Below are positions 14,171 through 62,592 of a stretch of DNA of 64,000 nucleotides, piece after piece. The position numbers and the translations under genes are program-made. Source of the DNA: Psammoneis japonica (lineage: Eukaryota); the NCBI GenBank assembly GCA_008632985.1, contig QPGO01000081.1, forward strand, positions 186,001 to 250,000, written 5' to 3'. The notes beneath the pieces were generated by a model, which saw only the letters and a list, made by a program, of their open reading frames with translations, made no database searches and was not told the origin of the DNA. The number at the start of each line of letters is the position of its first letter. Positions within the stretch are counted from its first letter, which is position 1.

Positions 14171-14178
14171 ACTCCACT

Positions 14179-14184
14179 CACACA

Positions 14185-14215
<31 letters not shown>

Positions 14216-14217
14216 CA
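14179..14217. repeat. (CA)n microsatellite
   Basis: Interrupted CA run at the truncated end of the gypsy relic. Confidence 0.95.
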
Positions 14218-16070: not shown

Positions 16071-16471
16071 TCTGGCAAGTGATGCGTTTGAGGGCGATGG
16101 ACAGATTTGAGGGCTGCAGGAGCGGTCGAACGATTCAAAATTTTCATTCACGCGAGGAGCAACGGAGATTGCTTTCCGACCTGCGGGATCAAAATGAAAA
16201 AGAGCCTCTCCACCATTGCCTTTATTAGACTGAGGCCGATTGTTTATTTGAATGAAATAGCATCTCAACCATCACTGACAGAAGTCGCCGCACTGAGTCA
16301 TGAAAAATGAGAGGACTAGTAGTACGGTACATCTGGAGGAAAACTATAAACTATGGTGGTCTTTCTAATTTTATATTCTGATTCTGACATACCGCGTTGC
16401 ACATTGCGTGGTAAAAAACAACAAACTGATTCTGAGCTTTCAAGTCTCATAGCATCCTCTCATGAGAAAAG

Positions 16472-37640: not shown

Positions 37641-39906
37641 AAACCCTTTCAATGTCACACAAAGCGAGCTGGCAGCTCTCGAATCTGCTTTTCTTTCTGT
37701 ATACAATCAGACAGCCTCGAGCTCTTGTGGTGAAAATGGGTTCCGCACTTTGGACAACGTCACAATTGTTTTAGAAATAAATCCCGGACTCACGAGAACA
37801 GACATGGCGGATTCGTTGACCAGGCAAAGTGAGCCCGTTCGATCTCAGTTTTCCTTGCTTTACCGAGTTTTCCTTCGTTGTGTCGGATGTAGAAACAACC
37901 CCCGACTCTTTCAGCCCGCGACTAGTGCTCGTCGCCAGCTCCAAAACAAGGAGCATATTTCAGAAGAAGGAAATAATTTCCCAACGCCTAAAGGCGTCAA
38001 GGGCGTAAAGCCAGAGCGATCTCTCCTTCTCACCAAAAAGACCCCCGAAGAAGACCCCAAAGCCGACATTAAAAAACTGAAACGGTTCAGTGGATCGCCC
38101 AAGTCCAAGTACAGCATTATCGATGAAATGGAGTTCCTTGTCACTGCCCGACAAGACGACGAATGCCAATGTGAAGCGCCTCTTACAGAAGATTTTATCG
38201 AACCGTTCAATTCTGTTGTCCGTGGACTCATGACGTTTGACGTGTTAATGAATGTTGATTCTGTGGATGCTGTCTTTGAACTCGATGACGTGGATTGCTC
38301 TGACACCAGCTTTTTCGAGACAGAAATTGAAGTGAAACATGTCGGCAATCCTAATGAGCTGACTTTTGGCGAACTCATTGCTCTTGAGGATAGCTTTCGT
38401 ACAACTTACAACAACCAGAATGCTTTAAACGGCGACACCTGCGACCCCCTGTTTCGCGTGCTTGACACGGTCACCATTCTTCCGCTTGATAGTCCAGCTG
38501 TTAACGGTACACGCATGTTTACGTCAATATACCTCGCTTCTGGACGATGCAGAGGTTGTGCTTCTAGCTCTAACGTGTTCAGTCTTGAATCTCGGCGGTC
38601 GCTTCAGCGGTCTAACCCTGAGCCAAGGTTCCTTCAGCAGATAGTCCAAAACAACACGTGCTTTTGCCCGATGGATTTTGATCAGAGACCGCCGACTAGC
38701 AGTGAGTTCTTAGATGCCTTTGAGAAGAATAATGATGTTCTACGGGATGCGGGCGTGTTGGTCAACATCAACTCCACTGAGTCTGTGACCGATCTGATAA
38801 CTCCTGGTCTGTCGCCTTCTCCAACGGAGGTTCCGAACCTTCAGCCAACACTTTCACCAAGTTTGGTTGGAACGCCATCTCCAACACGTCAAGACATGTT
38901 CCCGAGTCAACGACCAACTACACCAGCGCCAACTCCAAGAAGCACTCCGAACCCTACTCGACGAGTTACTCCCAATCCAACTCGTCGAACGACGTCCGCA
39001 CCAACTCCCAGAATCACTCCGAATCCTACTCGTCGCACTACACCAGCACCATCTCCTCGCACAACCCCCAATCCTACCCGTCGAAGGACGTCAGCGCCAA
39101 CTCCCAGACTCACTCCGAATCCTACTCCTCGCGCTACACCAGCGCCATCTCCTCGAGTGACCCCCAATCCCACACCTCGCGCTACACCAGCGCCATCTCC
39201 TCGAGTGACCCCCAATCCAACTCCTCGCGCTACACCAGCGCCATCCCCTCGGGTGACCCCCAATCCCACTCCTCGCGCTACACCAGCGCCATCTCCTCGG
39301 GTGACCCCCAATCCCACTCCTCGCGCTACACCAGCACCATCTCCCCGCGTCAGTCCAAATCCGACGCCTCGAGCTACAACAGCCCCGACTCCTCGCCAGC
39401 CGACACCGAGTCCAACGCCAAGAGTCACTCCGGGTCCGACGCCTCGACCTACTCAACCTACACCGGTCACGACACCTGAAACACAGAGACCAACATTCAA
39501 TCCGACGCCAGGAGGCTCTCCAGCCTCGACTCCGGGTCCAACGCCCCAAGCATCACCTGGTTCAACACCTCGACCTACACCGGCCACGACACCTGAAACA
39601 CCGAGACCAACACTTAATCCAACACCAGGAGGCTCTCCAGCCTCCACTCCGGGTCCAACGCCTCAAGTACCAACTGGTCCAACACCTCAACCTACACCGG
39701 TCACGACACCTGAAACACCGAGACCAACACCACAAGGAACTCCAGCCTCGACACCGAATCCGACACCCGGTCCTGATGGACCTACGTTGCAGCCAACGCT
39801 GAGTGTGCCAAGCACTCCTACTCCATCTCTCGATCCTGCATCCCTTAGTCTCGTCCCCTCCTTTCAAGGAACTCTAAGCAATGTACCAACAATCATCGCT
39901 CCGTGA
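37450..39906 (+). CDS. Secreted mucin-like protein: repeated Cys-containing modules plus Pro/Thr/Arg-rich tail, 818 aa
   Basis: Signal peptide; repeated EL.ALE..F...YN....C....R.LD.VTI..RC.GC module; RNLQ/RQLQ/RSLQ/RFLQ motifs; long P/T repeats. Confidence 0.88.
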   Translation: MLLSRMLEALPLVVVVGWLSVVANASNPNSEKPSFLRNRNLQGDSCEGVAEDVIEIQTIIYHTGNPFNVTQSELAALESAFLSVYNQTASSSCGENGFRTLDNVTIVLEINPGLTRTDMADSLTRQSEPVRSQFSLLYRVFLRCVGCRNNPRLFQPATSARRQLQNKEHISEEGNNFPTPKGVKGVKPERSLLLTKKTPEEDPKADIKKLKRFSGSPKSKYSIIDEMEFLVTARQDDECQCEAPLTEDFIEPFNSVVRGLMTFDVLMNVDSVDAVFELDDVDCSDTSFFETEIEVKHVGNPNELTFGELIALEDSFRTTYNNQNALNGDTCDPLFRVLDTVTILPLDSPAVNGTRMFTSIYLASGRCRGCASSSNVFSLESRRSLQRSNPEPRFLQQIVQNNTCFCPMDFDQRPPTSSEFLDAFEKNNDVLRDAGVLVNINSTESVTDLITPGLSPSPTEVPNLQPTLSPSLVGTPSPTRQDMFPSQRPTTPAPTPRSTPNPTRRVTPNPTRRTTSAPTPRITPNPTRRTTPAPSPRTTPNPTRRRTSAPTPRLTPNPTPRATPAPSPRVTPNPTPRATPAPSPRVTPNPTPRATPAPSPRVTPNPTPRATPAPSPRVTPNPTPRATPAPSPRVSPNPTPRATTAPTPRQPTPSPTPRVTPGPTPRPTQPTPVTTPETQRPTFNPTPGGSPASTPGPTPQASPGSTPRPTPATTPETPRPTLNPTPGGSPASTPGPTPQVPTGPTPQPTPVTTPETPRPTPQGTPASTPNPTPGPDGPTLQPTLSVPSTPTPSLDPASLSLVPSFQGTLSNVPTIIAP
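38911..39420 (+). repeat. Coding tandem repeat, 48-bp unit (PRATPAPSPRVTPNPT)
   Basis: About five near-identical units at 39127-39370 flanked by diverged units. Confidence 0.92.
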
Positions 39907-43737: not shown

Positions 43738-45739
43738 CCTTCTTGGTGGGCCCACCAAGGACGCGCAATGTCCCCTGGACGTAGATGTCGGAATGTTCCA
43801 TTGGCATGAACCAACAGGAATTTGCAACCGCTGTGAAGATTTACATGATCAAAACCAACATTAGATAAAGGGTCCATACATTTTAGAAGATTGACAGTGC
43901 ACATCTCCATTTTAGAAGATTGATGATGTATAAATCCGTTTAGAACATTAGCAATGCACAGATCTACTTTTCATTTTGAGTTTTTACAGAGCGTTGCAGT
44001 GTTGATAAAACTTGAACCAGGGTCGGCGAAACGAAGTTGGTTCTATTGTACGGTACCCTGCTCTAACAGGTGGAAGAGACTGGGGCGGGCGCGTGAACTT
44101 TGGGGGACGTCTCATCCAGCCAGCTGCTGGCAGAAGAAAGTCTGCTCGTCAGTGCATCTATAGAGAGTCTGTCCAGCGTTCACCGAAACTGGCAAAACCC
44201 CCAAAACGCATTGATTGTCAGACTGTTTCAGTGCAAATTCTACGCAAGATTCTTTGGCCAGCAGCTGGCTGGAGATGCAGTGGTGCAACAACGTGGGCCA
44301 GAACAGAAGATATTCCTTCGCGAGGTCGTCAGAGTGCACCTTTTTTCACAACAAGAGTCCACCACATCCACATTGGTGGAGATGGCTCTGTGGAAAATCG
44401 CTGGTTTCACCAATTTGCCATGTGAGTCAAGCGCCAGATTGAGAGTCACGCTGCTCCTGGAGGCCAGCCAGCACAGCCACAAACTTCCGTGCACCAGCCA
44501 CCAGTGCTTTGGCTCTGAGTGCCCTTCCTTCCCACCCACAGAACATGTGCACGAAAGTCTGAAAACTGTGTTCATTTAAATCCTCTAAAAAAATGCATGA
44601 TCTCTTCTTTGTGGGTGGTTGTGTGTGTCATCTGCTGCACATTGCACACATCTCAGCACTGCACATGATGTCGAATGATGGTTGCTGGCTGCACATTTTC
44701 AGTGCTTGGCTCCAGATCTGAGAGGCCAAAATGTCATCAGGCTGTGGAGCAAGCTTGGCTGTCAATGTGATGCAGTGATCATGCGCAGCAAAATTGGCGC
44801 CAATTTCAACCTTGTCAAAGATTCTGGCACTGTCCACTTTTGCCGCAACTGCATCCAGGGAGGCACAATGGGCGCTGCTGGTGGAAGAGAAGCTGCTGGG
44901 GGAAGACCTGATGGAGGGCACCCACGGATGAAACTCAACAATTTCTTCAGCAAAGACAAGCCAAAAGGGGACAGCAGAGTTCTTTGTGAAGAAAAAGGTC
45001 CATGCACTTCATCTGCTTTGCACACCCTTGATTTCATTTTTTGGAACAAACCATTTCTCAAACAGCTGCAAACCCATCTGCATGATTCCAGGAATCTTGG
45101 AAATTTTCAATTTTTAAAAATCCACGTGACTCGCGCTCGTGGATTTTTAGAAATGCAGATTCTTAAAAATTCCCAATGCATGTTTTCAAAAACAGATGCT
45201 CCTTGTTTTAGAAAATGACGCAATTTCGTAAATCTCCCCTTTTCATTGTCAAAAATGTGTGAGTGCCTTTTTCTCATGCACGCTGATTTGAATTGCGGCA
45301 CCTCATCAAAGGCGGACTGCCAGAATCACCTCTTCCAAGATGTGCCAGCATGGGGCAGAGCAGGCGGGAGAGAAAACAGCATTGTCAACAGAGAGACAAC
45401 AACAAAAAAACAAAGGCTCGCAACACAGTGAAGCAACACTCTTGTTTGCATTTGGTGTTTGTGAGTTGTTGGATCTCAAATTGTGCAAATGACATGATCG
45501 TTGAGAAAGTCAAAATGACCGTTGACAAATTGGCGTGACTTTCCACTCTTAAGAATCAACTGTGGTGTGTTTAAAAATCAACGTTCTGGGGAATGCAGAT
45601 TTTTAAAAATGGAGATTTCTGAAATTCCGCGCAACAGATCCATCTCTTGCATTGTCTCTTCATGACTCTTTGTCATCTTCTCATTGCTTTCATGCAAATC
45701 CTCATTGTGTTGTCCAAAACCTCCAACATCAACCTCAAC

Positions 45740-48700
45740 ATGTCAACCCCCGATCCGCAACCAGACGTTGCTGCTTCCGCAAACTTGTTCCCCACAGAAA
45801 TGGAGGTTGTTTCAGATCTGCGACCGGAATTGAAACATCAGAAGACACGGTCCATGGCAGTTTTCTTGTTTGTGAAACAAGAGAATCTGCCAGATGGAGG
45901 GCAGCATTGCATGTCCAGAGTGCCAATCCATTGTTTGCACTGGCAAAAGAGGCTGCAACATTGTCACTTGCCGCAACCATGCTCCGAATGTGCAACTTGT
46001 CTGTGCCCCGAACAAAACACAAGAGAGACGTGGTCGCAAGCATTGGCAAAGAAGAACAGCCAAAACAAAAACAACCCCGATTGATCTCAGCAACAAAAAT
46101 GACAAGGAAGCAATGATGCCATCACCCCCAGTTGACATCAACAGGAAACAAACAGGTGCGGACAGTGGATCTGGTGGGGATCTTGTGTCAGCAACTGAGA
46201 AGATTCCAGAACCCTCTGCAAAGGACAAAGAAGAAAAAGAAGAGAAACCATGTTTGGTGCGGGCATCATCACCCCCAGTCAAGAGCAACAGCAAACAATT
46301 GTGCACAGTCAATGGAGCTGGCTAGGATCTTGTGTCAGCCGCCAACAAGAAAATTGCAGAACATTCTACAAAACAAAACCAAACTTCTGTGTTCACAGTG
46401 CTGCCACACTTCCACCCCGCAACTCTGGCAACAAGCTAACCCACACCCCCAGCACATGACCAGTGCGGCAGGAGCATGTGACAATTGGCTCGAATCGGCA
46501 TCACCCGAAGGTGACGCTGCGCCAAAGCAACTTGCGACAGTTCTTGTGCCACGTGCAGCCAAACGCTTGGCCTCTTTGATGCTCGACTTGAACATGGGTT
46601 TGACCACAGCCAGCCAATTTCGAATGTGATGGGCAGAGTGAGTGAGATGTTCATGAACTGAGTCGAACAGTTGTGCCCTGTCCTTTGCAAGACACTCATC
46701 TGATCTCGAACAAATGGCCCAAACCTCTGCCTCAGTGTCTCTCTGCTGAGACGACTTCCTGGCATCCGAATCGTGGCCGTGAACATCATCGTCATGGGAA
46801 TCCCACAGCTCCCACCATTGCTCCCAAACACAATTGCCAACAGTTGCTGCCCAATCTAAACGTTTCTCTTTGTCTGAAAGATCCTGATGCACTCCACTTG
46901 ACAAAAGGTGAGCACACTGAGTTGCATTCCACTCACGAGAGAAGCATCCGCTGAAGACATGTCTCCATCCGATGGCATCCTGGGAACGGAACAATGCCAC
47001 TACACTCCTGTGAAGACCATCTGAATGCATCAGTTCTTCTTGAAACCAAGACTCAATGGATGAAATGATCAAGTCATGGATGGTTGGTGAAGTGTCAATC
47101 TCGTTGCACTTTTTCCGCAGACCTTGTAAAAACTTTCTGAGCCATTCTTCGTCACAAGGACATCTTAGAATGTGGTCGCGGTCTTCCATTGGGTGCTGGC
47201 AATGAATGCAACAATCAGGTCGTACCGGGTTATGCCGGTGCACGATCTTGTCAGTGGGGAGCAAGTCTTGTGCCAACTTGACAGTGCTCACCTTTCGTCT
47301 GATGTTTCGTGACATTAATTTGGAATGTGCCTCCCAATTGACATGGACTCACACACTAAATCCGACCAGCCACACTTGTCTTTCATGTGCTCAATGAGTG
47401 CAGGACTGGATGCCTCGAAACGGAGGGTCAGTTTGAAGTCCGAATTTACAGTGGTGTGTTGGACAACTAAATTCACCAAACAATGAGGAGTTCTTGGTGC
47501 CACCAGTGTGTTTCCTGAACAGTGACCATGACATCGACTCGCCAACCCATCAGCTCGGACATTCAGTTTGGCTGGCAATGAGAGAGAATCGAAAGGTGCA
47601 TCGTCGTCTTGATGTCCTTTCACCCACTGAACCTTGACACGCGTTCTGGAAGACCCACCGACAGAGACATTTGACATGTCAAGAGTCGATTGATGCATTT
47701 CATGCAGTGAATCCCATTCAGCTGATGGCATGTTCGCCACATGGTGTCGTTGGTGGTAATCGTGGACTCGGTTGGATTCATCCAGATCGTCTGGCAAAGG
47801 TGGCAAGGAAGCAAACTCTGAAGCATGCTGAACCAATGAGCAGTTGTTGCAATGAATGTCCAAGCCTGGAGGGAAAGTCAATTGACAACATTCCATCGTC
47901 CAAAAAATGAATCGCAAAATGGAGAAAATACCGTGCGCTTCTGCCCGGTGCGACGAAGGACGGAAACCAAACACGGGGCCGGCGCAATCAACAAAAGGCA
48001 AGCCAGAAACGGTCAGTGTCCATCCGAAAGTTCCACGGAATTCAATCACCGATCCATCACTGCCTGCAGAAGCACGTGATGATCTGAGACAATCTGCAAT
48101 TTCAAGTGTCGACTTGTGCAGTGAGATGTCTTCGAATGGCGAGGCTTCCCATTGTGGGAGTGACTGCAGCATCATCAAGAAATCGTTCAGATTGGCAGCA
48201 AGTTCAGGAACTGTCACGGGAGACACAGAAGAAGCCAATCTCCACTGGCCATCTTCAGCAGCAGTTGCCATTGCAGGGGCAGCTGATGGAGACAAATCAT
48301 GCAATGTTTCCAACTCGGGTGCAGACTCCACACAGTTGTTTCGCAATGGGAAGACTTGAAAACCTGAATCAGTTTGGATGTGTGAGCATTGTTCATCTGG
48401 TTTGCAGCATGCTGGGTGCGTCATTCGCATGTCCAAAGAAGAAACGACCCACTGTCCCAATGGACCTTTGAGTGTTGTTGCAGACTCCACACACAATGGG
48501 GAACAAAACCTCTTCCATTGTTTCCATGCATGCGCAGACGGGCGCTGTTGTTCCACTGGGTTCAACCTCAATGCTCCGCCAATGAGGGAGCGTTTGCCCT
48601 CCAAGGCACAGCAATCTGGAGACCGACCGTCCGGTGGAGCAACATCCGAAACGGTGAGAACATTTGGATGCAATCTGCAAAAATTAACCCACCTGACCTC

Positions 48701-51700
48701 GCGATCTGCAAAGACACCCGAATCCAAGACCACATCCACAATGTGCTGATCATTGTCCCTCTGCAACGGAAGGATGCCAGTGTTGTCAAAGTCGATGTGC
48801 GCATTCACTCTGGCAAGAAATGATCGCAACGACACAAACCATTTTGACTCAGCATGTGGCAATTTCGAATGCATGTCTCGAAGAAAACTGGCTCCTGCAC
48901 CCAAATGAAATTGCACCCAGGAGACGGTGATGAGAGATGAAGCCTGCGGTTGTCCCGATCCGCGCCAGTGTCATGAGAACTGTGGCAATTGTGCGACACC
49001 TTGCTCAACATCTAATGAACGAAAGCCTCCACCGCCTGGAGAGCAAGGCCCGAACAACACGTCTTGCTTTGTGTTTCGATTGTATCTGCATTTTGCAACG
49101 ATGATGCGCACAGCCTTTCGTTGAATCTCCAGAAGTTCCTTGGGATGAAAATGAGCATTTGGGAGAATGCAGGTCATTGAAGATAGATGACAGGCGAAAC
49201 AGTGGGTCCATGCCTTGTGTCGATCAAGGGGACATGAGCAAAGGAACATGGCGATGTCATTGCTTTTCTTCTTGAGTGCCGAAAATTGTGTCTTTTGGCT
49301 TCCAATCGGAGCTTTGCAGTTCCCCAAAGTTCCATGTGAAGAGCATGCAGATGGCTGTCTGCTCTGATGAGAAGTGGTTCTGTCGGCAGAAGCAATTTTG
49401 ATGATGAGTTCGTCGTCACAAGGCCGGAGGTGAGGTTCCCCGTCATCTGAAAACATCCATTCGATGGCGTGAAAAGAGCATTTCGGCAGCTCTAATTCGT
49501 GGCCTGCGGCGTTCAAGAGATCACACCACAATTGGTCATCCTCCTGCATTTTGAACGCAAGTTCAAGCATGCAAGGCTGAGGCGACGCTCGAAAATCGTT
49601 GGCTTGTTCAGACGTGTCATCCATGCATCCTCGGTTGAACATTCTCATGGCCGTGTTCTGTCAGGAGTTTCAAAGAAGGCGCCGTGAGCGTTACGATCAA
49701 AAATGTCAAAAAGACTGTCACACATCTGGCTCCAATCAAAAAAAGATCTGCCACTGCCTTGCCCCGTCCTGAGAATTGGCAACTCTTCAGAATGTGAACA
49801 TGATGTCGGAGACAATCCAAGGACAGTTTTCAACCAACAACAAGCCTCATGAATCGCAGTGTTGGCGACTTGGGTGACCTTCTTGGGCATGCCGTTGCTT
49901 TGGTTCTGGACAGCAACCAGAGCCGGGACATTCCTGTTGCAACATGACGTGCAATCGTCATCGCTGTTGATGGCTGACTTGCATGACACTCGACTGGTCT
50001 CAAGCATCAATTCTTCGAGATAAACAGGAGTCTGGGCATTCTGGAATGGACGAGCACTGTAAACACCGGGGTCACACAACCTTCGATGTTCCATGTTTTG
50101 AGCCAGTGCTCTCCATTTTACACCAGTGACAAGCTGAAAGTCGGCTTCGTAGATGTGAATCACACGCAACCGGTGAATTTTGGTGTTGCTGGGCTCTTTG
50201 AATGTCATGACATTGACTGTGTCCTTCCAACGGTCAAAAGAATGACCCCATTGCAAGGCACAATTCAGAAGATTGAGGCAAATTTGGGTCAAAGTTTGTT
50301 GAATGTTGTCCAAAAGCACACAGTCGGAATCGTCTTCTTGGTTCGACGCAGGGGCGTCCGAATGTTGATGAGGACAATGCGTGACTTTCCAGTGCCCCAA
50401 ATGTAAACCAGAACGCAGGGATGCAGAAGTTGACTCCTTCCAGCTCTTGATCTTGCCCTCTAATTCCACCTCGGTTAAATGTTCTGACACCAAAACAGGG
50501 GATCAACGTTTCAAACAGGCAATCAGTTGAGCTGCAGCATCGTTGAGAGAAGAAGTGTCGCAATCGCCGTCCAGCATGAGTTCCGCCATGATGGTGTCAC
50601 CTTTGAATCCAAGGTCCACAGACAAGGGGGGAACGGCAGGAGGAATGCCATGTGCCTGCCCAAAATGCTTCTGGTTTCGCACACAAAGAGCAGTCGCAAA
50701 GTCTTCTGGAGCGTCGAGTGTCATCCAATCATCGCATTCCTTGGGATGCACATTCGGGTTCCGAGGGACTTGAACGCCATCAATGCCGGTGTCCCATTCA
50801 GCCTTGCACGATTTGATCTTCTTGAAAAGTCCAACCATTTCTTCTGCTTTTCGCACATTGCGAACAATCGAAGCTTGTTTTCAGGACTGTTTGGTCCCTT
50901 CCAAATCGAGAGCTGCAATTTTGGCTGACATTTCCCGTTCACGATGCACGACACCATCCGCAGCGATCTTCTTGCAATCTGTTTGAGCTTCTTGCAGTGC
51001 TGCTTGGCATTCTTGCAATGTTTTGGGAATGACAAAAGATCCTTTGAGGTCATCCCAAATCCGCTGAATCTGGGGTGCGTAATTGATCTTGGTGCGCATC
51101 ATGGAAACTGTGCGAGAGAAAATGTAAACACGATGACGAAGGTCCGCCAACTCCACAGACCAGTCGGGTTCACGATGACGCCTGCAACATTTGGCCGCCG
51201 CTGAAGAAAACTGCAACAAATCGCGATCTAATCTCTCTGCCAAGTCATGATTGGGTTCACTGAGTGCCAGGAGCTGCGCAGATCTTTCCAACACGAATCG
51301 ACTCTCCAACACAGGGCCAATGGCTTTCAAGTGCACCGTGACTTGAGGTTCAGATGATGCTTGGATGTCTCGAAAGCATGCTTTGGGAAGATTGACCGCA
51401 GGGTTTCCAAACAATGCTGTTGTGTCAAAGTCAACGTAGTGCGCCCGGTGGTCAGAAGCAATGTGATGCCCAAAGGCTTTGCACCCTCCCAGTCTGACAG
51501 CAGACAAAGCTCCCGGCGAAACTGGAACAAAATCGAGGCGTTTTGATCCGCGTGTGTGTGTGGAGAAGTCAGTGTCTCCAATTGCATTGAAGAAGATGTC
51601 AGACAAATTGAACCGTTGCGCCAAACTCGCCAAAGAATCCGCATCAAATTCGAAATCCGTGCTAAAATCGCCGAACAAGATCACTTCTCTGTTGGATTCA

Positions 51701-54700
51701 GCCATGAATTCTTGGAGAATCCGAGATGAATCAGCACAAAAGGCTTTGCGTGGGTCCACTGCTTTAGCTCCATTCTGTCAAAGGAGACATTGTTGCTGAG
51801 CGAATGCGGCAGTTTTCCCTGGTTGGCGCTGGTTTTTGGCGCAAACTCTGTGGCATGAAACGAACACAACTTGTCGCCCATTGCGGCCGTCGAATGCTTG
51901 AATGGACCATCGCCCGAGGGAATCGGAAAGTTGTGACTGGTGCCGTGCAGACACAGCATTGCAGGAAAAGAGAGCGGTTCCGCCAGGTTTGCATTGCATT
52001 GAGAAGGGGGTGGAGCTGGTGGAGAAAGTGCCTCGGCTGTGTGGCAGCGAATTGGAAACTGCAGACCTGCGTGCTGAGAGAATGTCAAATTGTGTCGTGT
52101 CCAAACACACCTCCAATGTGCCAACAATGACGGCTTGGATTTCATTGGCCACCTGGCAGCATTCGTTGATGTTGCCACCGTGCTTGTCGAACTTGCATCC
52201 ATTGGCATTGAAGGCGCACTGTCATGTGTGGTGTGATGACTTGGGGTGAAGGCTGTCACCGATGGGTTCATTGGTTTTTAGACGCGAGAAATCTGTGCGT
52301 TGATCAGCCGGCGGATGGCAACTTTGTCCATTTAAAAGGGATTGCCATGCAGACACGTTTGCAGGAGAAGGGTTGCTGCTCATGATTGGGCCATGCTCCT
52401 CCGAAGAGAAGACTGGGGCTTGCAGCAAGGAAGTGGATTGGAGCCGCAGTTGAGAAAGAAAGGTCTGCACTTGCCAGTGCGTCAGAAAACCCAAGCAAGG
52501 GACAGGGAGGATGTGCACTGATGAATGTCGGGAGGGCGCCCAATGGTTTGTGGAGATGGGGGTGGCAAGATCCATCTCCATGCTAAAAATCCGAGTCTTT
52601 CCCATCGTCACTGCGGTCGGGAGTCTGGTTTTGGTTTTGTCGTTTTCTCGCAGGACTGGCGGAAGAAACTGACTGAGATGCTTGGAGCAACTGGATGATC
52701 TCGTTCATCTGATCTTGCATGCCTGACAGTTTCTCCGCATGTTGTGATTGCATGTTTTGCACTTCATTGGCATGTTCATCTCGCAGTTCACGAAGGGCCT
52801 TTTCATGACTGGTTTGCATTTGGGTCATGGCACACTGGACCTTGGCAAACTGAACGGAGGCAATCGATGAACTCGATGAGGATTGAGCGATTTGAGCGCA
52901 AGACGCTTGCGGAGACGTGATGCCAGGATGTCCAGTGAGACCAAAGTTTGGAGATTGAAATGATGGTGGGTTTGTAAATGTCTGAGGAGGAATGGGACGA
53001 GCTGCTGATTCACCGCGACCGGGAAGAGTGGTCCGACTGTAACCTCTGCCAGGCAAAGGAGTGGGAAGGCGAGCAGGGCGAGGAGCATCTTGGTTGGTCA
53101 AGGGAGACACATCTGAGAAGGTGAGGGACTCCAAGCTGTGGATGCTGGCAGACATGATGGACTTGCTTGCATCAGAAGCTTCGTCAAAAACCCCAGGCAC
53201 TTGAGGAAGATCATCAAATGGAGGGGACGGATGGGACTCTTTCAGAAGATTTGGGATTTCATTCAAAATGCATGCAGAAATCTCCGCTCGGGCCTTTTTA
53301 AAATGGTTTTGATGGACCAAAATGTTGTGTCTCCCGGTGGATGTCATGTTGGGGGAAGGAAAAATGTTGATCACACCTTCAATCGCTTTGATGTGGTTTT
53401 CCAAAAAGAACATCACATCCACAGAAGCACACAATGACGGCACAACAAAGGTGTTGTTGTTGCGTTGGGCTTGCGTTTTAACTGCGTTGTAGAAGGCGAG
53501 TGGAGACAGATGTCGAGTTTTTGCCATGAGGACGTGGGTTGGAAGTTTCTCGGAAGCATGTGACAAAGTTTTCGCCGCAGTGCGGTGATCATCTTGTTGG
53601 ACTTCGACAGAAAAGGTGACTGCACAGATGGGGACTGATTTTTTGTTGTCATCTGCTCGGACGGAAGTGGGGACTAGTCGGAACTTTGGCATCTTGGTTT
53701 TTAAATCCCCAAGGTCTTTGATGAACAACTCAGTCACAGCGTCGACAGGAGTGTGCTTTGAAGCGGCAGCAATGAAACATGCTGGACTGGCCATGTCGAT
53801 GACAGACTCATTCCAACAGTGACGTTTCAAACCAGTGTTGTTTGCCTCCAAAATACTTTGAATGTTGGGATGAGAATGAACATCGCAAAGGGGAACTTTC
53901 GCAAGGATACGATGACATGAACGGTGTGTGACCGGACGATTCTCACCACTCCAAGCAGTGGAGATCTGAAAATGACGTTCGTGCTGGAGAGTCGACACCC
54001 ATTCGGCAATGTCCACATTTGTGATTCTGGTGTTGTAGTTGTCCAAAATCTGAACTTCGTTGTGAAAAGTAAAAAGGATCTGACTGAGAATTTGAAGATG
54101 GGAGGTGACGAGGGCCATGGGCTCACAAGTCGCTTCTGGACCACGAATGTCAAAACGAACAGTTGTCTCTTCAAACTGTCGTTCTTTTGGTTTGGAAGAA
54201 GGTTTGAGGGATGCCAGGTCGACAGCAATGTCGTCAGCGGCGGTGGCATCTTTTTTGCATCAGCAGCATTGCCACCGGCAGTGGCGGAAGACGACGCCAT
54301 GGTGGTCGGTGTTTCTACGGTGAGCCTGGTGTTGAAACACGCAGGTAAATTCAATGCCAACAAATGCAGAAAAGTGCAGAACATTCTACAAAGGATGCAG
54401 AAGAAAAGGAAGAGAATCCACCTTTGGTGCAGACAGAGGCCATGGTTGTAGAATGGCTTGACAAACTGGAGCAGCATTTCAGAGATCATCCTGGAAGAAG
54501 CAGCCAAAACGTCACCATGTGCATTCTCAAAAGACATGATGTGGAGCATTGCAAGCAGGCTGATGAAGAATTGGCAGAGAGCACAGGAATGCCCGGTGCC
54601 ATTTTGGCATTCATTGATCCTGGTCCAGGAACAGAAGTGGACACGATGTGGCTGCTGGGGATTGTGACAGATGGGTGGGATTTCCTCCCGACAAGCAATG

Positions 54701-55400
54701 GAGAGAAAAAATTCACAGACAAGCCCAGGTTTACAGGGGACTTGCATCTGGCTCTGTGTGATCTGTGTGATGTGTTCCATTTTGAGGAAGAATGTGATTG
54801 GGTTTGCGCAAGCTGTGTTGAAGACACAGAGAAGTTCAACCCATTGCCTGGCCCATTCACAGGGCCAACATCAGCTCCTGTCATTGACCGAATCAAAGCC
54901 ATTGTGAAAAGAGAGTGGCAGACTGCCACAGCAGCTTTGTCTCCTCGTTGTGTGGCACTGATTGTGTGAGCGGCATGCCAGCTGTAACTCGGTCCATTGG
55001 AGATGCCAATTTAGCACCAGCTCTTCCCGTGGTGTTGATGGATGGAACTGAGTTGACGAATCTCTGTGGGCATTTGCTGAGTGTTGAAGCATGTCAACAT
55101 GGTCTCTCAAGCTGTGCAACAAAAGTGTGATTCCAGTCACAGCATCAATTGGGAAGAAGGAGGAGCATTTCAGGAAGCGGCCCAGATGCTCACCCAAGAA
55201 GCCTGCATTCATGGAAGCACAGAGACAATGTCAGAGTCTGTGTCATCACAACAGAACAGATTTGTGTTTCAAATGCATGGAGGGCATTCTTCTGTCACTT
55301 CACCAGAGCCCTTCATGCACCACAACTGTTCTTGCTCTACTCTGGTGCACATGATGGGCAAGTGGACCAAATTCTTGGAGCAGACTGAGTTGCAGCTCTG
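45740..55400 (+). pseudogene. Degenerate unknown ORF split by the LINE insertion (45740-46372 joins 54393-~55400)
   Basis: Its internal repeat DLVSATEKIPEPSAKDKEEKEEKPCLV is matched by DLVSAANKKIAEHSTK|DAEEKEENPPLV once the LINE is removed. Confidence 0.6.
46373..54367 (-). mobile_element. Apparently full-length degenerate non-LTR retrotransposon (ORF1; APE-RT-RNase H-Cys/His), resembling diatom Ambal-type LINEs
   Basis: APE: ILFGDF, THTRGSKRLDF, SDHRAHYVDF. RT: SGLHLGHWK, LRVIHIYEADF, TGQGSG, GCMDD, LELPKC. RNase H: SDGSV, SSHRAEAHG, WVKGHQD, LNVRADGLA. CxxC..EDRDHILRC. Flanking 25-bp direct repeat (24/25) at 46348-46372 and 54368-54392. Confidence 0.92.
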
Positions 55401-55483
55401 AGAATCGGGCTGTCAAAACATCGACATCATCTCTTGAAGAGTGTTGTGCCAGAGCTCCAGTGCAACTGCTTCGTTGTTCTCAT

Positions 55484-55567
55484 TCTCTTGTCATTTGTCT
55501 CCTTGGCTTTGTGTTGCATCATGGGTCTCTTGTCATTCATCTCCTTGGCTTTGTGTTGCATCATGGG
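55484..55567. repeat. 42-bp tandem duplication (a second short duplication lies at ~55696-55783)
   Basis: tctcttgtcatt(tg/ca)tctccttggctttgtgttgcatcatggg twice. Confidence 0.9.
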
Positions 55568-57009
55568 AAGAATCCACCCTGTGGAGGATCTGCTGCAGGC
55601 CAATGACACAGGAAACAAGAGCCAACTTGACACCAAGACAGACAATGGCATCATCAACACAAGACCCATTTCATGGCTGCACTCTGTTCCCAATCATGGC
55701 TGGCCTCCTGCCTGACAACTGCGCATGACCTCTTTTTATCGCCACAAAATGGCTGGCCTCCTGACAACTGTGTGTGACCTCTTTAACCTCATGTGTGGGC
55801 AAAGCAACCCACAAAAACTAATCACAAGCAACACAATTTTATTTTTACAACATTTGCGTCTTTGAGATCAATTGAACTTGCGCACAACAACTGACCCCTT
55901 GCTCGCACAACTGCGCCAACTGCATGACACCCATTTTCTCATCTGGTGGAACAGACAAAAGCAAGATGGAAGCTCCATTTGTCATTTTTTTCATCCTGTG
56001 GGATTGCAGCATCAATGTGATTTGTGCTTTTTTAATCACAACATGCAGGCTCAACTGTCTCCAAATCAACAACATCAAAGTGGAGCCACCCCAGTCACTT
56101 CATCACAGCCTCAAAAGATCCCTTGGATCCAAATCATTGCTCTGCTCAGCTGTCAGATGTTTTTGATGTCCTCATCTCAAATCTCTCCATCAGATGAAAA
56201 TTGTGGTGCAAATGATGACAGTGGGGACTGCACTCATGTCCAGGAGATCAAATGCAATGGAGACCACTTTGAGCTTGACAAATTTGACTGCTGTGCTCCA
56301 GCTTGCATGAGTGACAGAGCTTGTGAAGGCCTGTGAACAGACTGCATTGGATCAACCTTGTGTGTCTGTCATGATCACCCTCTGTGTAAAAACAAGCCCT
56401 CCAGTCTAACTCCCATTCTTGTGAAGCCCACACCAATTTGGCCAGATTGCTTGCTGATGGCCAAGAGGCACTTGTTAGCTTCACAGGCTTGACCTCCTGC
56501 ACAGGTGACAACCATGACATTTTGGCATCATCCAAGATCAACAGTGAGTGAGGCTTGTGTGACTGGGATGTCCAATGAATTGTTGTTTTGCATGTTGCAT
56601 TTACAGAACATGGGCAAGTTGCCATTTCAAGACACCCATGTTCTTGTGCGCATGTTGGGCATCTGTGTTTGGAGAATGGCCAGAAATGGCAGAGGCTTGA
56701 GAGTCAAAGGAAAGAGAACACTGCTCTTTGCATTGCATGTCACACACATTTTGCATCAATGGCTTCCTGGGAGAGAACTGCAACAAGTTGTCATTGGATT
56801 GCAAAAACTGAAACTGAGTGGTTTGGCTTTAGGATTTTTCCCCATTGAAAGCATTTGTGTGACACTTGAAGGTGGCTTCATTTGATTGCATGGATGTTTG
56901 CATCACTTGGAGGCGGCTTGTCAAACCAAAGATGATGTGAAACACTCTTTTACATCAATGTTGCAGTTTTGTCACTTCATTGCATGATGTGCAGATTGTT
57001 GCATTGAGA

Positions 57010-59210
57010 AAAACAAAACAAACCCAATTTAAAGTGCTGTCACACCTTTGCCCAGCAACACCGGCACCAGCTGACCCACACCTCTGGCACACCTCAATGT
57101 GGGTGCAGCAGAAGTAAATGCGATTAGCCTGAAGCAGCGTCTCCCTGAGGAGACACCCGATGGAAGCAACTGGTGATGGTGCGAGTGCCGCAAGTGCCAG
57201 CTTTTTGGCTTCTTTGAGACTTTCTTTCAGTCTAGGTTGGACCATTGAGATCCAATTTTGCACGTGCATTGTTGTGAAATTTTTATGATCTTCCACTGAA
57301 TCAAGCAAAACACCTTGGTCTTTAGCCAGGTGTTCTTGGCGTTTGTTGTGTGCAGCTGTCAATTCAGCCTCAACCTTTCATCGCTGGGACAATTTCCTTG
57401 AATCTGCGTCATGTCCTTGTGCTTGATGGTTGTGCTCTTCCCACAGTCCCCACCACTGTTTCCACATGAACAAGCCAATCTGAGCTGTCCAATTCGGGGG
57501 CTGTTTGTTCTCTTCTTGGCACTGATGAAGAATGCTGGAGTCCCGCAAACACCCGGACTGGATCACATTCCAAAGAGCAGAGTGCCTTCCACTGAACACT
57601 TGACGCCACCACCTGATGTCTGATTGAGCACACCAAAGGGCTCTGCAGCAACAACCCAAATCTTCTGGGCACATCATCATCTTGCCATTGAACCATGCTT
57701 GAATGGACTCCAACAAGAAATCTCATGGCATCGGCATTGCATCAATCTCATTGCAATGATGCCGCAATCCTTGCAAAAATTGCCTGCACCAGGGTTCGTC
57801 ATGGGGGCACCGCAGGATGTGATGTCTGTCCTCCATTGGATGCTCACAGAGAAGGCAATGGTGAGGTCAAATGGAATCACATCGGTTGACCATCTTGTTG
57901 GTGGGAAGAAGATCATGTGCCAGCTTGACTGTTCCAACATGTTGCTTGGAATGCCTTTTGATGAGAATTGCATGAGCTCCCCAGTCTGTCAGATCGATCA
58001 CTTCTGGATGCCACTGGCTTCACTCGAGAATGCATTCTAACAGTTGCGGCGCAGCAGCAGCGCATCTGACATGCCTTTTATGGCCTGCTGTCAATGTGCC
58101 ATCCTGCAGGCTCAAATGCGAGTGACAATGAGGGAACGGTGAGACCATTGAAGCATCTTAATCACAATGTCCTTGGTGGGTGCTGGCTGTCCTGTCAGCT
58201 TGTATGTTGACTCTCACGTTGAGTGGAAGTGTGTGAACTGGAGCATGTTGGTCTTGATGTCCTTTAACCCACTGTGCTGGCAGCAGAGATGAGGATGCAT
58301 TGGACTCACTGAATTCCTCCATTGCCATGCAAGAGTGCAATGTCTTGTTCACAACGTCCAAATCTGAGGCAAGGGCACCAGCTCCATGGTGGCAGACATG
58401 AAAATCTTGGGCATCATTGGATTGCCCCCCAGGAGCCGGAGCCGGCAGGTTCAGAGTGATCTGTTGCAAGCAAAACACCACTGCCTTGTCATTGCAATGC
58501 ACACCCAAATCCAGAAACTTGCTGACTTGGCAACACTCAACAAATCTGCAAATGAAGTGGCAAATTGAGAGGATCCCACATGCTTTGGCTTGGCAAGATG
58601 AGGGACATCTTCCAAAAACTGGTCCGGCACAATCTGCCAACGGGGTTCCTGCTGACGCAATCGTCCAAGCGAAAGTGGCTCCTTCATTGACAGACCCATC
58701 ACTCCCTGCAGTCAATGTCAAGGACAAAAAATGTTGAACCAGTGTGTCCAGGGGGACATGAAACTCAAGGTCTTTGAACAATGTTGACTCCCATTGTGGC
58801 AAGGATTGCAGCATGTCTTGAAAAGTGTCCCCGGAATCCCAGAAATCTGTGGATCAGATGAGGCAGTGTGTGGGATGTCGAACATCCATCAACCGTCTTC
58901 TGTTGTGGAGAGTTCAACTGGAAATGATTCTTCAGACAGGACTGGCACTGTTTGCAATTCCACAATGGTGTGTCCATTCTGGTGCCATTTGCTTGTAACA
59001 TGTTGCACCCTGAAGGAGACCGAATGCACAAACAATCCTCTGATGGAGAAAACATGCGGCTGCTTGCATGCACATCTTGGATGGCGGTGCCAGCCAATTG
59101 CCAAGGGGCTCTTTCAGTGTCTGTGATCTTGGTCTGCACAAAGACACACAAAACTTCTTCCAAGTGTTCTCCACACCCCTGGACCTGGTTCATGTTGCTC
59201 GACGTCATTC
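57010..59210 (-). mobile_element. 5'-truncated, more decayed copy of a related LINE (RNase H to 3' end)
   Basis: LQSLPQWES, GSDGSV, SSCQAKACG, WVKGHQD, NWISMVQPRLKESLKEAKKLA parallel the 46373-48500 part of the full element; similar 3'UTR. Confidence 0.88.
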
Positions 59211-62200
59211 AAAGCACTGACGCTGCTGAATTAAAAAGAGGAGATGTCACATTCAGAGGCAACCACCCACTTCATTCAGTTGCAAATTGTGAAGCTTTTC
59301 TCAGCAAACAGAGGCACACAGTTTGGAAGCCCCATCAAGAAAAGCTCTGTGAGCATTCAGTCACACTGTGGAGTGCCACTCTCAGTGCAAGTCCCACTCA
59401 TCTGCTTGGGGTGGAAGAACTCTGTCTTGGCCCCATGTGGGTTGAAATTGCACACATCAAAGAGACTGCTCTAATGCATGCCTGCTCCAAATGCATGATT
59501 TGCATGTCTGCAATGGCAACGTCCTCCAACAACATGTGCATTGCTGCCACCTCCATGAAGCGTGGTGGTGGAGTGTCCAAGGTTGATGTCTGCAAGTTTG
59601 GTTCTTGTGGTCAGAACAAAAACAGTTTGTCACTTGTCGACACTGTGTCCCAGCATCTCACAAGAAGCAACTTCTTGTCATCTTCTGCAAGCAGTGCTGA
59701 CAGTTTGCAAAACAATGCACCACCAGCATTTGACTCACTGGCAGCTGCAGTGGCTCCGCTGTTCACTGACACACACTGGTCCGATGATCATGAGTCTGAG
59801 GATGAGTTCAATCCTTGCACATTGGAAGTCCGTGTGATTGCACTGATGTCAACAGAGAGCATGGTTGTGAGGCTCTTAAATTTTGTTGCCCAATGGCTGG
59901 GCAGTTTGCCACCAGAAAACCCTCCTGTGTTAAGAGCAAGAGCTTGAGCAGAATTTTTTGGGATTGTTGGGCCAAGGGCCTGGGTCATTTTGCAACAAAT
60001 CCACTCACTGTGCAAGTGCTGCACTCAGTTCATCCTGTGTGGCATGAGAAGAGTGTGGATCTCTGGAAAATGTCAAGTGTGAAGATGATTGTCAAAAAAG
60101 GTTGCATGTTGCACAAGCATCATTGTGCAAAATGGCAAAGCAAACAAAACCAGTGAGAACATGGGCAAACACAAGTGGCTTTAACTGAAATGCAGGCAGA
60201 CTTCACACTGGAAATGGTTGTTCCTTTTCATCATTGAAAAATGCCCTGGCTTGTCAATTTTGTTGCCTGTGATGCAGGAAAGCAGGGTTTTGACTGCCAT
60301 GCTTTAAGAAGCCAAGATGATGACTGCCTGGGGTTGCTCACTTGGGTGCAGTCAATGCACCAATTGGCTTGCCATGCATCATCCCATTTGGACCAACCAA
60401 GCACAACATTGTGGCATTTTGTCTCAGTGTGTCTTTTGCTGTGGACATTGTTGTGTTGTGAAGCAAAAAATGCAGAGTGCAGCAGCTGTGCAATTGAGTG
60501 CGGCTGCCAGCCATGGAGGTGATTGAATCCTCCACGATCATTGATCTTGCTGCTGCTCTGTGGATTGATGAGTGCAGTGTCAGTTGCAACTGCAGTGCTG
60601 GCACTCATTCAAAAATTGTTGACTGGGGTGTTTGGCAAGTTGTGGCCATGGCAGCACAACAAATTCTTTGTTCAAATGGCGCCAATTTCAAGTGTGGTCA
60701 GTTGGCAGAGTCACAACAACACAGCCAAGCAGCAGCCAAAAATGGGCAAAGCCATCCCAAAAAATTGTGGAAACTTGTGCATGCATCACCAAGACCCGCC
60801 TGATGGGGCATCGGCTCCAGGACTTTGTTGAGTGGCACAAGTGTGGCTTGACAAGTGCAACTCAACAGATGGGTGCTGCAAAACTCAAACATGCTGTGCA
60901 CTGATGAGCCATTGCAACATGTGTGGCACTTCATCAACAAAAAAGATGCAATGTGCACACTCAGATTCTTGGGACCAGAGAGGTGTGGAGCCAAAGCATG
61001 TTCCCACATCAAGAAAAACACAAAAAAAGAAGTTGATGTGATTCACAACAAAAGCAGGTGCTCAATGGACTCACAAATTGCCACCATGAGTCAATTTGGT
61101 CTCTCTTTTTCAGCAATTTCATGGTTGCATCACCCAAGTGTTGCAGGCAGCAACTGGAAGATGCATCTGTGCAAAGGGCAGGAAAATGGCCACCCATGCA
61201 GAATCTTCTCAAGGTGTTCACTCAAACTGCCCAAATTGAGCACACAATTTTCATCAATGCTTGCCAGCGTGGCCCGAAAGACACTTGTTCCTGTCATCAT
61301 CCCATTGGAAACCAATCATGACTTAGAACTTTGGCCCATGTGAGCTCAAAAGCATCCACTGCAGAGTGCACAATGGACATTGACAATGATGTCAAATGCT
61401 CACCACACTGCAAAGTCACCTGGTCTGGGAGTTTCCAAGTGCTGCAGTCATTGACAAAGCCACCAAACAAAAGCTGCGGCCTGATCAAATTCTAAATTTC
61501 AAAAAAAATGTCCCTTCTCAAGCCATTTTCATGTTTTCCCCCCTCCCAAGTTGCTCTGGAAACCAGCTGACACCAGATTGCATGTCAGGAGTTTTCAGTG
61601 CATCCACAGAATTTTCAGACACTTTGTTGCAGAAAGACGAGTGCTGTGTGAGTGACAAACGAAACAGCCTGTCCCCACCTTCTGGGGTTGCCACCAAATT
61701 GCTCTGGAGTCATTCATGTCTGCTTGTTGCCCATCATCATTTTGCTCAGACAAATGACAAGAATCTCTTCACCAGCAAAAACACAGCAACTGACAACCCT
61801 GATGCAATCTTTCGGAAAGCAAAGATGGCAACGAAATTGCTCAAAATCTGGATTTTTGTGTGCCATGCCCATTCACAGCAACTGGTCTTGGACAAAGATT
61901 TCACTGCATGGTTTCTTGCCAAGGCCATTCCAGGGGGTGGTTGGTTCTTGCATGCCCAGCTTGTCACACAGTTGCTCCATCCTGCGGGGGTGCTGGATTG
62001 CCGTTGGCCACAAAAGTGGAGCTGAGGTGCTCGAAACAGCACAAAAGCAAGAACTTGGCATCAATGTCATCATTGTTTGAAATGACATCATCACAAGCTG
62101 AGAAAACCAAAGCAGTGTCACTTGTGACTTGGATGGTCAACTCCTGCAATGTCTCAAAAGTTCAGAAGGCAAAAGACATCTTAGAAGCAGAGAGTGACAA

Positions 62201-62592
62201 AAACATCACATTGCCAGATTGAGACAATGCCGCCATCATGGTGCCCACTTTGCATGCTGCCACATCATGTTGCAACAGTGGCGATCAGCACCTTCTTGGC
62301 ATCAATGCCAGAACACCTTTGTCCAGATGGGCACCACACAAAGGCGCTGACAACTTTGCAGTGCTTGTTTGCCGGAGGAGCCACACGTTGACCCACGCAG
62401 TTTTTGTGTGGCCTTCTGGGCACTGGGCTGAAATTGTTGATGTGCAACACACCTTAAATCATGTTGTGACAAAGGCACGGCTCTGTGGGACTCAACTGGA
62501 CTTAGAGATGTTTTGACATCAACCAAAAAGCAAGCACGAATCCACAAGAAAGAAATCTTCCTTCGCTTGGGGCAGCGATCAGAAAGTCAATA

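Follow-up and report, generated by a model that had tools for sequence, protein, structure and literature searches.

Does transposon DNA lose its TpA dinucleotides before, and separately from, its CpG dinucleotides? The question is raised by a dead long interspersed nuclear element (LINE), a retrotransposon without long terminal repeats (LTRs), that lies nested in an older sequence within a 64,000-nucleotide (nt) stretch of the Psammoneis japonica genome (GenBank assembly GCA_008632985.1, contig QPGO01000081.1, forward-strand positions 186,001 to 250,000). This whole stretch is referred to below as the window, and positions are counted from its first letter (Table 1). A preliminary description had proposed that TpA conversion in this element is faster than, and separable from, deamination of 5-methylcytosine (5mC) in CpG, and that the two ratios could act as a two-stage clock for the age of insertions. 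Our analysis indicates that the order, TpA first and CpG later, holds, but that a steady, faster rate of TpA loss is not supported and that the proposed clock is weak.

The counts on which the proposal was built proved exact, with 29 CG and only 4 TA in the 600 nt between positions 50881 and 51480 (observed/expected ratio [o/e] of 0.79 for CG and 0.11 for TA). When this segment was shuffled by mononucleotides, 4 or fewer TA were obtained in 0 of 20000 shuffles and 29 or fewer CG in 1040 of 20000; at the density native to the LINE family, 27.3 TA would be expected (P = 3.8e-8). Over the whole element (7995 nt), 48 TA and 350 CG were counted, whereas 364 and 415, respectively, are expected at family-native density.

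These counts would mean little if low TpA were native to the family and maintained by selection against UpA or by codon usage rather than produced by mutation. Among RNAs and RNA viruses, UpA is commonly avoided, and the genes of the window themselves have a TA o/e of only ~0.55. We compared the LINE with two sets of relatives: metagenomic relatives, which are the 80 best of 250 confirmed loci and mostly intact, best-scoring copies, and database relatives, the 150 best listed of 1614. All 80 metagenomic relatives were TA-normal (TA o/e, 0.38 to 0.89; CG o/e, 0.32 to 1.13). The 45 loci with an intact second open reading frame (ORF2) of at least 1500 amino acids (aa) averaged 45.5 TA and 51.9 CG per kb, compared to 5.5 TA and 44.9 CG per kb in the ORF2 of the LINE, while the summed density of CA, TG, CG, and TA was 242 per kb in the LINE ORF2 versus 243 per kb in the same 45 relatives. 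Tyrosine made up 3.7% of residues on average in the 150 database relatives and 2.4 to 4.9% in the 43 of them longer than 1000 aa, compared to 0 to 1.05% in the frames of the LINE. Thus, the relatives are not natively TpA-free with Cys or His at the affected positions, which is the situation that the preliminary description had named as fatal to its own proposal. Since, in addition, 17 of the 22 Tyr conserved in the family are Cys or His in the LINE, which also has 5 stops and 2 frameshifts, and since the same depletion is present in a gypsy-type element, in sequence without a Pfam match, and in a gene fragment (see below), we give practically no credence to a native origin of the low TpA. Of 1055 1-kb windows of DNA flanking the 80 metagenomic loci, one had a TA o/e of <0.25, and it showed no gain of CA or TG, a result that says little about other species.

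Residues were compared at the 460 columns of the alignment in which the family has a clear consensus. At the 22 columns in which the family conserves Tyr, the LINE has 2 Tyr, 9 Cys (TGY), 8 His (CAY), and 3 other residues; intact members retain 57 to 91% of these tyrosines. At non-Tyr consensus positions, the LINE retains 345 of 438 residues (79%), and the leave-one-out mean for 26 intact members is 77%. When the LINE was compared with its closest relative, P0121, the 56 Tyr positions of the latter were matched by 3 Tyr, 17 Cys, 12 His, 9 Phe, and 15 other residues. Further substitutions in the LINE obey the same TpA rule, namely, replacements of Ile by Met or Thr and of Leu by Pro (CCA). Cys and His are intermingled along the ORF (13 Cys and 14 His in 13 runs versus 14.4 expected, P = 0.35). 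Given that the two replacements of Tyr are equally frequent (9:8 at the conserved columns and 17:12 against P0121), both strands were affected, and editing of sense RNA alone is insufficient to account for them; the symmetry is read from Tyr codons, with CA and TG densities varying widely among family members. As far as can be judged from sequence, the process is specific to TpA, affects both strands equally through many independent events, and has gone nearly to completion in an otherwise well-preserved copy.

Among the 150 best database relatives, three (P0186, P0268, and P0174) are themselves poor in Tyr (0.6 to 1.5%). At the Tyr positions of full-length members, they carry 17 to 24% Cys and 17 to 38% His, whereas controls retain 51 to 60% Tyr. 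This pattern implies that erased copies of the LINE family exist elsewhere in public data.

In contrast to the 86 to 89% of TpA that the LINE has lost, its CpG loss amounts to 13% by density, 14% by Arg codons, and ~29% by o/e. Its conserved Arg columns contain 18 CGN codons, 5 AGR codons, and 3 products of CpG transition (CAG, TGC, and CAT), such that 18 of 21 codons of CGN origin have been kept. A second, older LINE copy of the same superfamily (LINE2) has lost both dinucleotides: its conserved Arg columns hold 1 CGN codon versus 3 transition products, and it has kept 0 of 3 conserved Tyr and 3 of 7 conserved Arg. The claim that TpA loss comes before CpG loss and is separable from it was therefore borne out. 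The decay of CpG to TpG and CpA is a second, slower process that is still under way in the LINE, presumably the deamination of 5mC in methylated transposons.

The sequence that the LINE interrupts has gone further along the second path. The two host flanks (positions 44200 to 46347 and 54393 to 57050; 4806 nt) contain 73 CG and 31 TA. Their CG density is 15.2 per kb versus 43.8 per kb in the LINE (P = 3e-18), whereas the TA densities of flanks and LINE are 6.5 and 6.0 per kb, respectively (P = 0.84). The preliminary description had held that the host and LINE2 have largely lost both dinucleotides. This is true of the right flank (CG o/e, 0.16) and of LINE2 (CG o/e, 0.32; TA o/e, 0.08), but the left flank has lost its CpG only in part (CG o/e, 0.43). 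That the LINE is nested in the host, and hence younger than it, was upheld: the target-site duplication (TSD) is identical at 24 of 25 positions, and the host sequence continues in register past the right TSD, where it matches its own preceding internal repeat unit.

Depletion of TpA is not confined to the LINE. The window is part of a pennate diatom genome in which genes (CG o/e, ~1.0; TA o/e, ~0.55) alternate with sharply bounded transposon islands. Genic blocks range from 0.77 to 1.04 in CG o/e and from 0.44 to 0.65 in TA o/e. In the five islands of the window (approximately 8.5 to 16.1, 21.6 to 24.1, 27.0 to 31.05, 33.75 to 37.1, and 44.2 to 62.3 kb), TA o/e falls to 0.03 to 0.10, and CA and TG o/e rise to 1.5 to 2.0 each; CG o/e is 0.12 to 0.16 apart from the nested LINE, its left host flank, and LINE2. 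The distribution of TA is bimodal, as 30 of the 64 1-kb bins have a TA o/e of ≤0.12, 28 have a TA o/e of ≥0.35, and the 6 others are boundary bins. GC content is equal inside and outside the islands. Since the summed o/e of CA, TG, CG, and TA is ~3.9 in genic blocks and islands alike, TA and CG have been turned into CA and TG by transitions rather than lost.

The island borders are sharp to within 100 to 200 bp for TA and CG alike in the ten boundary regions examined, and in all ten the borders of the two depletions coincide within ~100 bp. This coincidence, together with the fact that both losses yield TG and CA, raises the question of whether TpA and CpG are lost through one and the same process, such as a deaminase that attacks the adenine of TpA and the cytosine of CpG with unequal efficiency. 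A preprint on the chlorarachniophyte Bigelowiella natans (Mettrop et al., bioRxiv 10.64898/2026.01.13.699255) notes that enzymes of the ADAT2 type have been reported to deaminate adenine in RNA as well as cytosine in DNA. However, the two losses are uncoupled in the LINE, where 12% of TA but 71 to 87% of CG is left, and the same preprint reports that 230 of 231 hypermutations in B. natans were A-to-G or T-to-C changes at TpA, with no C-to-T component. One metagenomic relative (L077, positions 1143 to 5714), which has an unbroken 1524-aa frame, likewise combines a CG o/e of 0.32 with a TA o/e of 0.44, so that CpG can evidently be depleted without TA erasure in other hosts. We accordingly regard a single process as quite improbable. 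Two further metagenomic loci, L065 and L068, have a CG o/e of 0.59 and a TA o/e of 0.63.

The direction of the change and its dependence on location can be read from a pair of paralogues. A segmental duplication (positions 26944 to 29545 versus 33724 to 34182 plus 35489 to 37657; 72 to 76% identical) comprises transposable-element sequence and the 5′ end of an ORF, with ~1.3 kb extra between 34182 and 35489 in copy 2. The last ~570 bp of copy 2 lie outside an island, while their counterpart in copy 1 lies inside one. Of the 28 aligned TA in the unerased copy, 10 are CA, 9 are TG, 4 are TA, and 5 are other dinucleotides in the island copy, and its 20 CG correspond to 14 CA, 2 TG, 2 CG, and 2 others. 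In the reverse direction, 4 of 6 TA and 2 of 3 CG in the island copy are shared with the unerased copy. The comparison thus gives the direction as TA to CA or TG. Because one copy is erased in the island while its twin outside is intact, the process works, in place, on DNA already resident in the genome and depends on where that DNA lies; it is not limited to retroelements being copied. A-to-G and T-to-C changes outside TpA were not elevated in this pair (21 versus 25 G-to-A and C-to-T changes at other sites). With this background, and with TC and CC not depleted, UV damage, GC-biased gene conversion, and selection against TA were rejected as explanations.

The CpG decay in the island copy is strongly strand biased (14 CA versus 2 TG on the plus strand), while its TA decay is symmetric. 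The erasure border in copy 2 (~37100) lies ~320 nt upstream of the 828-aa ORF to which the duplicated 5′ end belongs (37420 to 39906), as if the promoter and the chromatin of the gene were protected. This ORF has internal tandem-like repeats (38968 to 39613 versus 39064 to 39730, 77% identical) and belongs to no Pfam family, and the kilobase from 39001 to 40000 is the most GC rich and most GC skewed of the window (GC, 0.578; skew, −0.43).

A sequencing or assembly artefact, in which modified bases (5mC, or modified T or A) were miscalled as TG or CA in a long-read assembly, could in principle mimic this pattern. We compared the island with contigs of a public sequencing run (~60x depth), which yielded eight long same-locus pieces (0.6 to 3.8 kb) with 0 to 3 base differences each. 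Eight of the 11 same-locus differences between assembly and run were of the CpG type. Six of these eight have TG or CA in the assembly and CG in the run, as 5mC miscalls would produce; they could reflect genuine decay of CpG in one allele or leftover long-read errors at 5mC. The other two have the opposite direction, however, and at 52877/52878 a TG-versus-CA double difference was found for which no contig supports the letters of the window. Moreover, a consensus in which over 90% of the sites are converted is not what miscalls produce. Since the run contigs reproduce the same TA- and CG-poor island sequence, a consensus or assembly artefact is excluded as the general cause of the depletion, and we consider that miscalling has only a very slight chance of being the explanation, although the run, whose origin and library type are unrecorded, may derive from the assembly's own sample and hence be no fully independent replicate. 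Two further runs of the same sample contain almost none of this sequence.

Several observations nevertheless weigh against a simple erasure of the LINE after its insertion. In the same-locus pieces of the public run (12,034 island bases), 1 of 61 remaining TpA sites differs, compared to 8 of 228 CpG sites; although the numbers are small, the probability of at most one TpA change would be 0.009 were the remaining TpA mutating 3 times faster than CpG. The single TA of the TSD survives in both copies, which is ~1 to 2% likely under a uniform later loss of 88% and fits either an already refractory site or a LINE that arrived already erased. Finally, the contigs of paralogues or alleles that map on the LINE show 3 TG/CA double differences among the 40 best-supported places of 134, so that most of the erasure pattern is common to whatever else maps there.

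These observations can be read as support for a LINE that was already TA-erased on insertion, either because an erased source was mobilised in trans or because the RNA or cDNA was edited during target-primed reverse transcription. The intact TA in both TSD copies, the TG and CA choices mostly shared with paralogous or allelic contigs, and the fact that the remaining TA are not hypermutable now are all as such an arrival would leave them, and the TA-poor, CpG-rich state of the LINE would then be uninformative about rates after insertion. On the other hand, the near-equal Cys and His outcomes show both strands to be affected, which is impossible by editing of sense RNA alone; the non-retroelement gene fragment was erased in place while its twin outside stayed intact, such that an in-place DNA process certainly exists here; and the B. 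natans process, as described in the preprint, acts on resident integrated DNA during vegetative growth. Erasure before arrival is therefore a serious alternative, albeit an unlikely one.

The kinetics of TpA loss do not appear to be those of a constant rate. Relative to intact relatives, TA survives to different extents in different contexts (ATA, 0.02; TAT, 0.04; CTA, 0.08; TAC, 0.10; GTA, 0.12; TAA, 0.20; TAG, 0.24; TTA, 0.32). TAA and TTA contexts hold 120 of the 152 TA remaining in all islands (79%), compared to 410 of 1034 (40%) in genic DNA. This bias could be the fingerprint of an enzyme. Taken together with the low variability of the remaining TpA sites and the surviving TA of the TSD, it suggests that TpA loss is fast, saturating, and perhaps episodic and that it leaves a refractory residue. 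A steady TpA rate above that of CpG, as originally envisaged, does not agree with the difference between TpA and CpG sites in the same-locus pieces. The two-stage clock was not supported either, since CG density in the nine island blocks lies anywhere between 6.9 and 43.8 per kb, whereas TA stands at a floor of 2.4 to 6.8 per kb in all of them (rho = 0.6, P = 0.09). With TA at its floor in every island, the TA stage holds almost no age information here, and CpG is the usable age signal.

Given these results, we think it likely that the LINE is a dead element within an older decayed sequence and that its lineage underwent a TpA-specific transition process at the level of DNA, with CpG decay coming second and more slowly. 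Of this picture, the dinucleotide specificity, the part played by both strands, the direction of change, the in-place action on island DNA, the sharp borders, and the precedence of TpA over CpG are shown by the data. The LINE would have inserted into sequence that had already decayed, and in its lineage TpA would have been converted to TpG and CpA about equally on both strands, removing some 86 to 89% of the TpA in the LINE. Conserved Tyr codons would thereby have become Cys or His codons, with other conserved residues and most CpG left in place. The conversion may be performed by an enzyme recruited to silenced chromatin. The likeliest candidate would be an enzyme that deaminates the adenine of TpA, an activity also proposed for B. 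natans, with a mutagenic thymine modification as an alternative. Such a process might serve genome defence and would be fast or episodic, with a refractory residue enriched in TTA and TAA. A bolder proposal, which we make only tentatively and would not yet back over its denial, is that diatoms carry an enzymatic, chromatin-targeted DNA editor that turns TpA into TpG or CpA in silenced transposons and is of the same kind as the activity in Bigelowiella, possibly an ancient defence ("adenine RIP," after the repeat-induced point mutation [RIP] of fungi) shared across the SAR lineages (stramenopiles, alveolates, and Rhizaria). If this is true, the editor would kill a new insertion, every Tyr codon being among its targets, long before CpG decay matters and without altering GC content.

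The identification of the element itself draws on its relatives. P0121 aligns to positions 52287 to 46524 across three frames. The endonuclease domain, which is weak in the LINE, scores 27.7 bits, above the Pfam cutoff, in P0121, which aligns with the LINE end to end, and the family profile of the endonuclease matches PDB entry 3teb (E = 4e-7). A phmmer search with the 285-aa frame at 49645 to 50502 returned 1614 relatives, the best with 46% identity over residues 6 to 284; 26 relatives exceed 1500 aa. The fold of the reverse transcriptase (RT) was tested on P0125, a relative that is 40% identical to the RT frame of the window, rather than on the window copy. The 14 best PDB matches of the central part of its AlphaFold model (pLDDT, 89.4) are R2 and human LINE-1 ORF2p (E = 2e-18 to 9e-15), led by R2 8gh6 (E = 2e-18) and LINE-1 ORF2p 8sxt (E = 2e-17). 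Pfam RVT_1 was undetected in the LINE and in the 4 intact relatives scanned, and at default thresholds Pfam assigned 0 families to the 13 ORFs of the LINE and its flanks. No LTR or terminal inverted repeat of the nested LINE was seen in the self-BLAST of the window, which returned 6 pairs only. Contig depth in the public run is ~20-fold higher at the 3′ ends of both LINE copies, as expected of a LINE family with many truncated copies. The endonuclease, the R2/LINE-1-type RT, the TSD, the absence of terminal repeats, and a 5′-truncated copy sharing the 3′ end justify assignment to the non-LTR LINEs with an apurinic/apyrimidinic (APE)-type endonuclease, in a clade whose RT escapes Pfam. With its 5 TGA stops and 2 frameshifts, and with other residues at 20 of the 22 conserved Tyr positions, the copy lacks the intact ORFs of an autonomous LINE and is dead. 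Erased elements of this kind evade Pfam and repeat annotation, as illustrated by the lack of any default-threshold Pfam match in an 8-kb LINE.

Table 1. Coordinates of the features discussed (positions counted from the first letter of the window)
Feature	Position	Strand	Details
SelO gene	6056-8194	-	712 aa; best named matches Cylindrotheca, Seminavis, Nitzschia (55-59% identity); top matches to 65%
Ty3/gypsy-type LTR retrotransposon, erased	8853..16071	-	RT_RNaseH_2 E=1.1e-13, weak Integrase_H2C2 match; CG 6.9/kb, TA 3.5/kb
Erased paralogue of gene 5′ region, inside transposable-element island	28960..29545	+	Aligned to 37085-37657
Unerased paralogue, upstream region plus first ~230 nt of 828-aa ORF 37420-39906, outside island	37085..37657	+	TA- and CG-normal; island border ~37100
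TA-erased island holding the nested LINE	44200..62300		18 kb; borders sharp within ~100-200 bp
Host sequence, left part, single-copy depth	44200..46347	+	CG o/e 0.43, TA o/e 0.09; no Pfam match
TSD, left copy	46348..46372		24/25 identical to right copy; one TA (CTAC), present in both
Dead non-LTR (LINE) retrotransposon	46373..54367	-	tblastn to 1934-aa relative P0121, residues 14-1929, three frames; TA o/e 0.09, CG o/e 0.71
ORF2 remnant	46479..52311	-	5 in-frame TGA stops, 2 frameshifts (near 49650 and 47335)
C-terminal zinc-binding motif (zf-RVT-like)	47157..47297	-	Pfam zf-RVT E=0.051, below cutoff; family-invariant Cys/His columns present in alignment
RT core, two frames	48971..50502	-	phmmer and structural match of relative
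APE-type (EEP) endonuclease domain	51442..52221	-	Weak Pfam: Exo_endo_phos E=0.0024 (18.1 bits, cutoff 24.5), Exo_endo_phos_2 E=0.19
ORF1-like open frame	52583..54259	-	558 aa stop to stop; 12 TA and 72 CG in 1677 nt; weak coiled-coil-type Pfam matches only
TSD, right copy	54368..54392		24/25 identical to left copy
Host sequence, right part	54393..57050	+	CG o/e 0.16, TA o/e 0.10
Second LINE (LINE2), same superfamily, 5′-truncated, 3′ part only	57051..59212	-	tblastx, tblastn; CG o/e 0.32, TA o/e 0.08

The identified contents of the islands are the nested LINE, LINE2, and the gypsy-type element; the host sequence and four island blocks have no Pfam match. The LTRs of the gypsy-type element (8853 to 10059 and 14911 to 16071) are 73% identical and differ by 29 CA-versus-TG double differences, which points to independent decay of ancestral CG or TA after insertion, with TA-derived and CG-derived differences not separable. 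The depleted zone begins ~350 bp to the left of this element (~8500). The islands are filled with 76 ORFs of at least 110 aa (110 to 340 aa, overlapping, in all six frames). With TAA and TAG gone, TGA is the only stop left, so that long spurious ORFs arise in the islands and form a trap for gene predictors. A Pfam search of 76 plus 73 island ORFs gave no match beyond the RNase H and integrase of the gypsy-type element. Between the islands lie intron-free genes that are TA- and CG-normal (983 to 4540, 31794 to 33428, and 42571 to 43737); the inter-island genes include a 1185-aa ORF without a family, an FAD/berberine-bridge-type oxidase, and an ORF with a weak PPC domain. A tRNA scan of the window found none.

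How does this process compare with known systems? RIP acts by C-to-T changes, mainly at CpA, and creates TpA. The diatom pattern resembles RIP of ascomycete fungi in being a dinucleotide-biased transition hypermutation that destroys transposons and leaves sharply bounded aberrant islands. It departs from the signature of fungal RIP in that TpA is destroyed (TA o/e, 0.03 to 0.10) and GC content is unchanged, and, unlike RIP, which hits both copies of a duplication, it mutated only the island copy of the pair examined here. To our knowledge, hardly any targeted mutational defence against transposons other than RIP and CpG decay has been described in organisms that are neither fungi nor vertebrates.

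Methylation-driven decay of CpG in transposons explains the change of CpG to TpG and CpA and its confinement to transposon islands. Deamination of 5mC cannot remove TpA, however, and it has been slower than the TpA process in the nested LINE. The accessible part of one study reports that diatom transposable elements are CpG methylated through DNMT5a and that some diatoms have a RID-related DNMT4 of unknown function (PMC9998398). In the accessible part of a mutation-accumulation study of Phaeodactylum tricornutum, a GC-to-AT bias is described and transposons are not mentioned (PMC6604790). APOBEC3 (G-to-A) and ADAR (A-to-G hyperediting) resemble the process described here in being deamination based, context dependent, and inactivating, and ADAR prefers a 5′ U, as stated in the Discussion of the B. 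natans preprint (bioRxiv 10.64898/2026.01.13.699255). Those enzymes act on one strand of RNA or cDNA while the element replicates and leave strand-asymmetric changes, whereas here both strands are equally affected and non-retroelement DNA was hit in place; Tyr-to-Cys and Tyr-to-His changes in near-equal numbers are not the sense-strand-only A-to-G pattern of an ADAR-like activity.

Full-text literature searches found no paper describing TpA loss in diatom transposons, and the sole close precedent is the 2026 B. natans preprint (bioRxiv 10.64898/2026.01.13.699255). In the mutation-accumulation lines of that study, an integrated nucleocytoplasmic large DNA virus (NCLDV) and a virophage received 231 of the 302 nuclear substitutions, at a rate of ~6e-7 per site per generation for the TpA changes, and hypermutation occurred in 11 of 15 lines only. 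RT, endonuclease-RT, and DDE domains were overrepresented among TpA-depleted coding sequences, and the authors proposed a deaminase resembling ADAT2; neither diatoms nor CpG are mentioned in the preprint. The two systems agree in that changes occur at TpA only, giving TpG or CpA by strand and in similar numbers here; in that they stay within separate blocks of DNA that is foreign or selfish and largely silent; in a long-term depletion of TpA with enrichment of CpA plus TpG; and in a seemingly episodic activity. They differ in that B. natans is a rhizarian, whereas the host here is a stramenopile diatom and the targets are retrotransposons and other DNA in their islands. Erasure is also near complete here, in contrast to a TA o/e of 0.45 in the B. 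natans NCLDV region, and it coincides in space with CpG decay and is known from its end state rather than from de novo mutations.

Here, then, a phenomenon described once before recurs in a new major lineage and in a far more extreme form. The finding extends TpA hypermutation to a major, ecologically dominant algal group in which retrotransposons and any DNA within their islands are hit. To the precedent it adds action in place, symmetry between the strands, precedence over CpG decay, and a flanking-base preference in which ATA and TAT are the most sensitive contexts and TTA and TAA the least, a signature that any candidate enzyme must reproduce.

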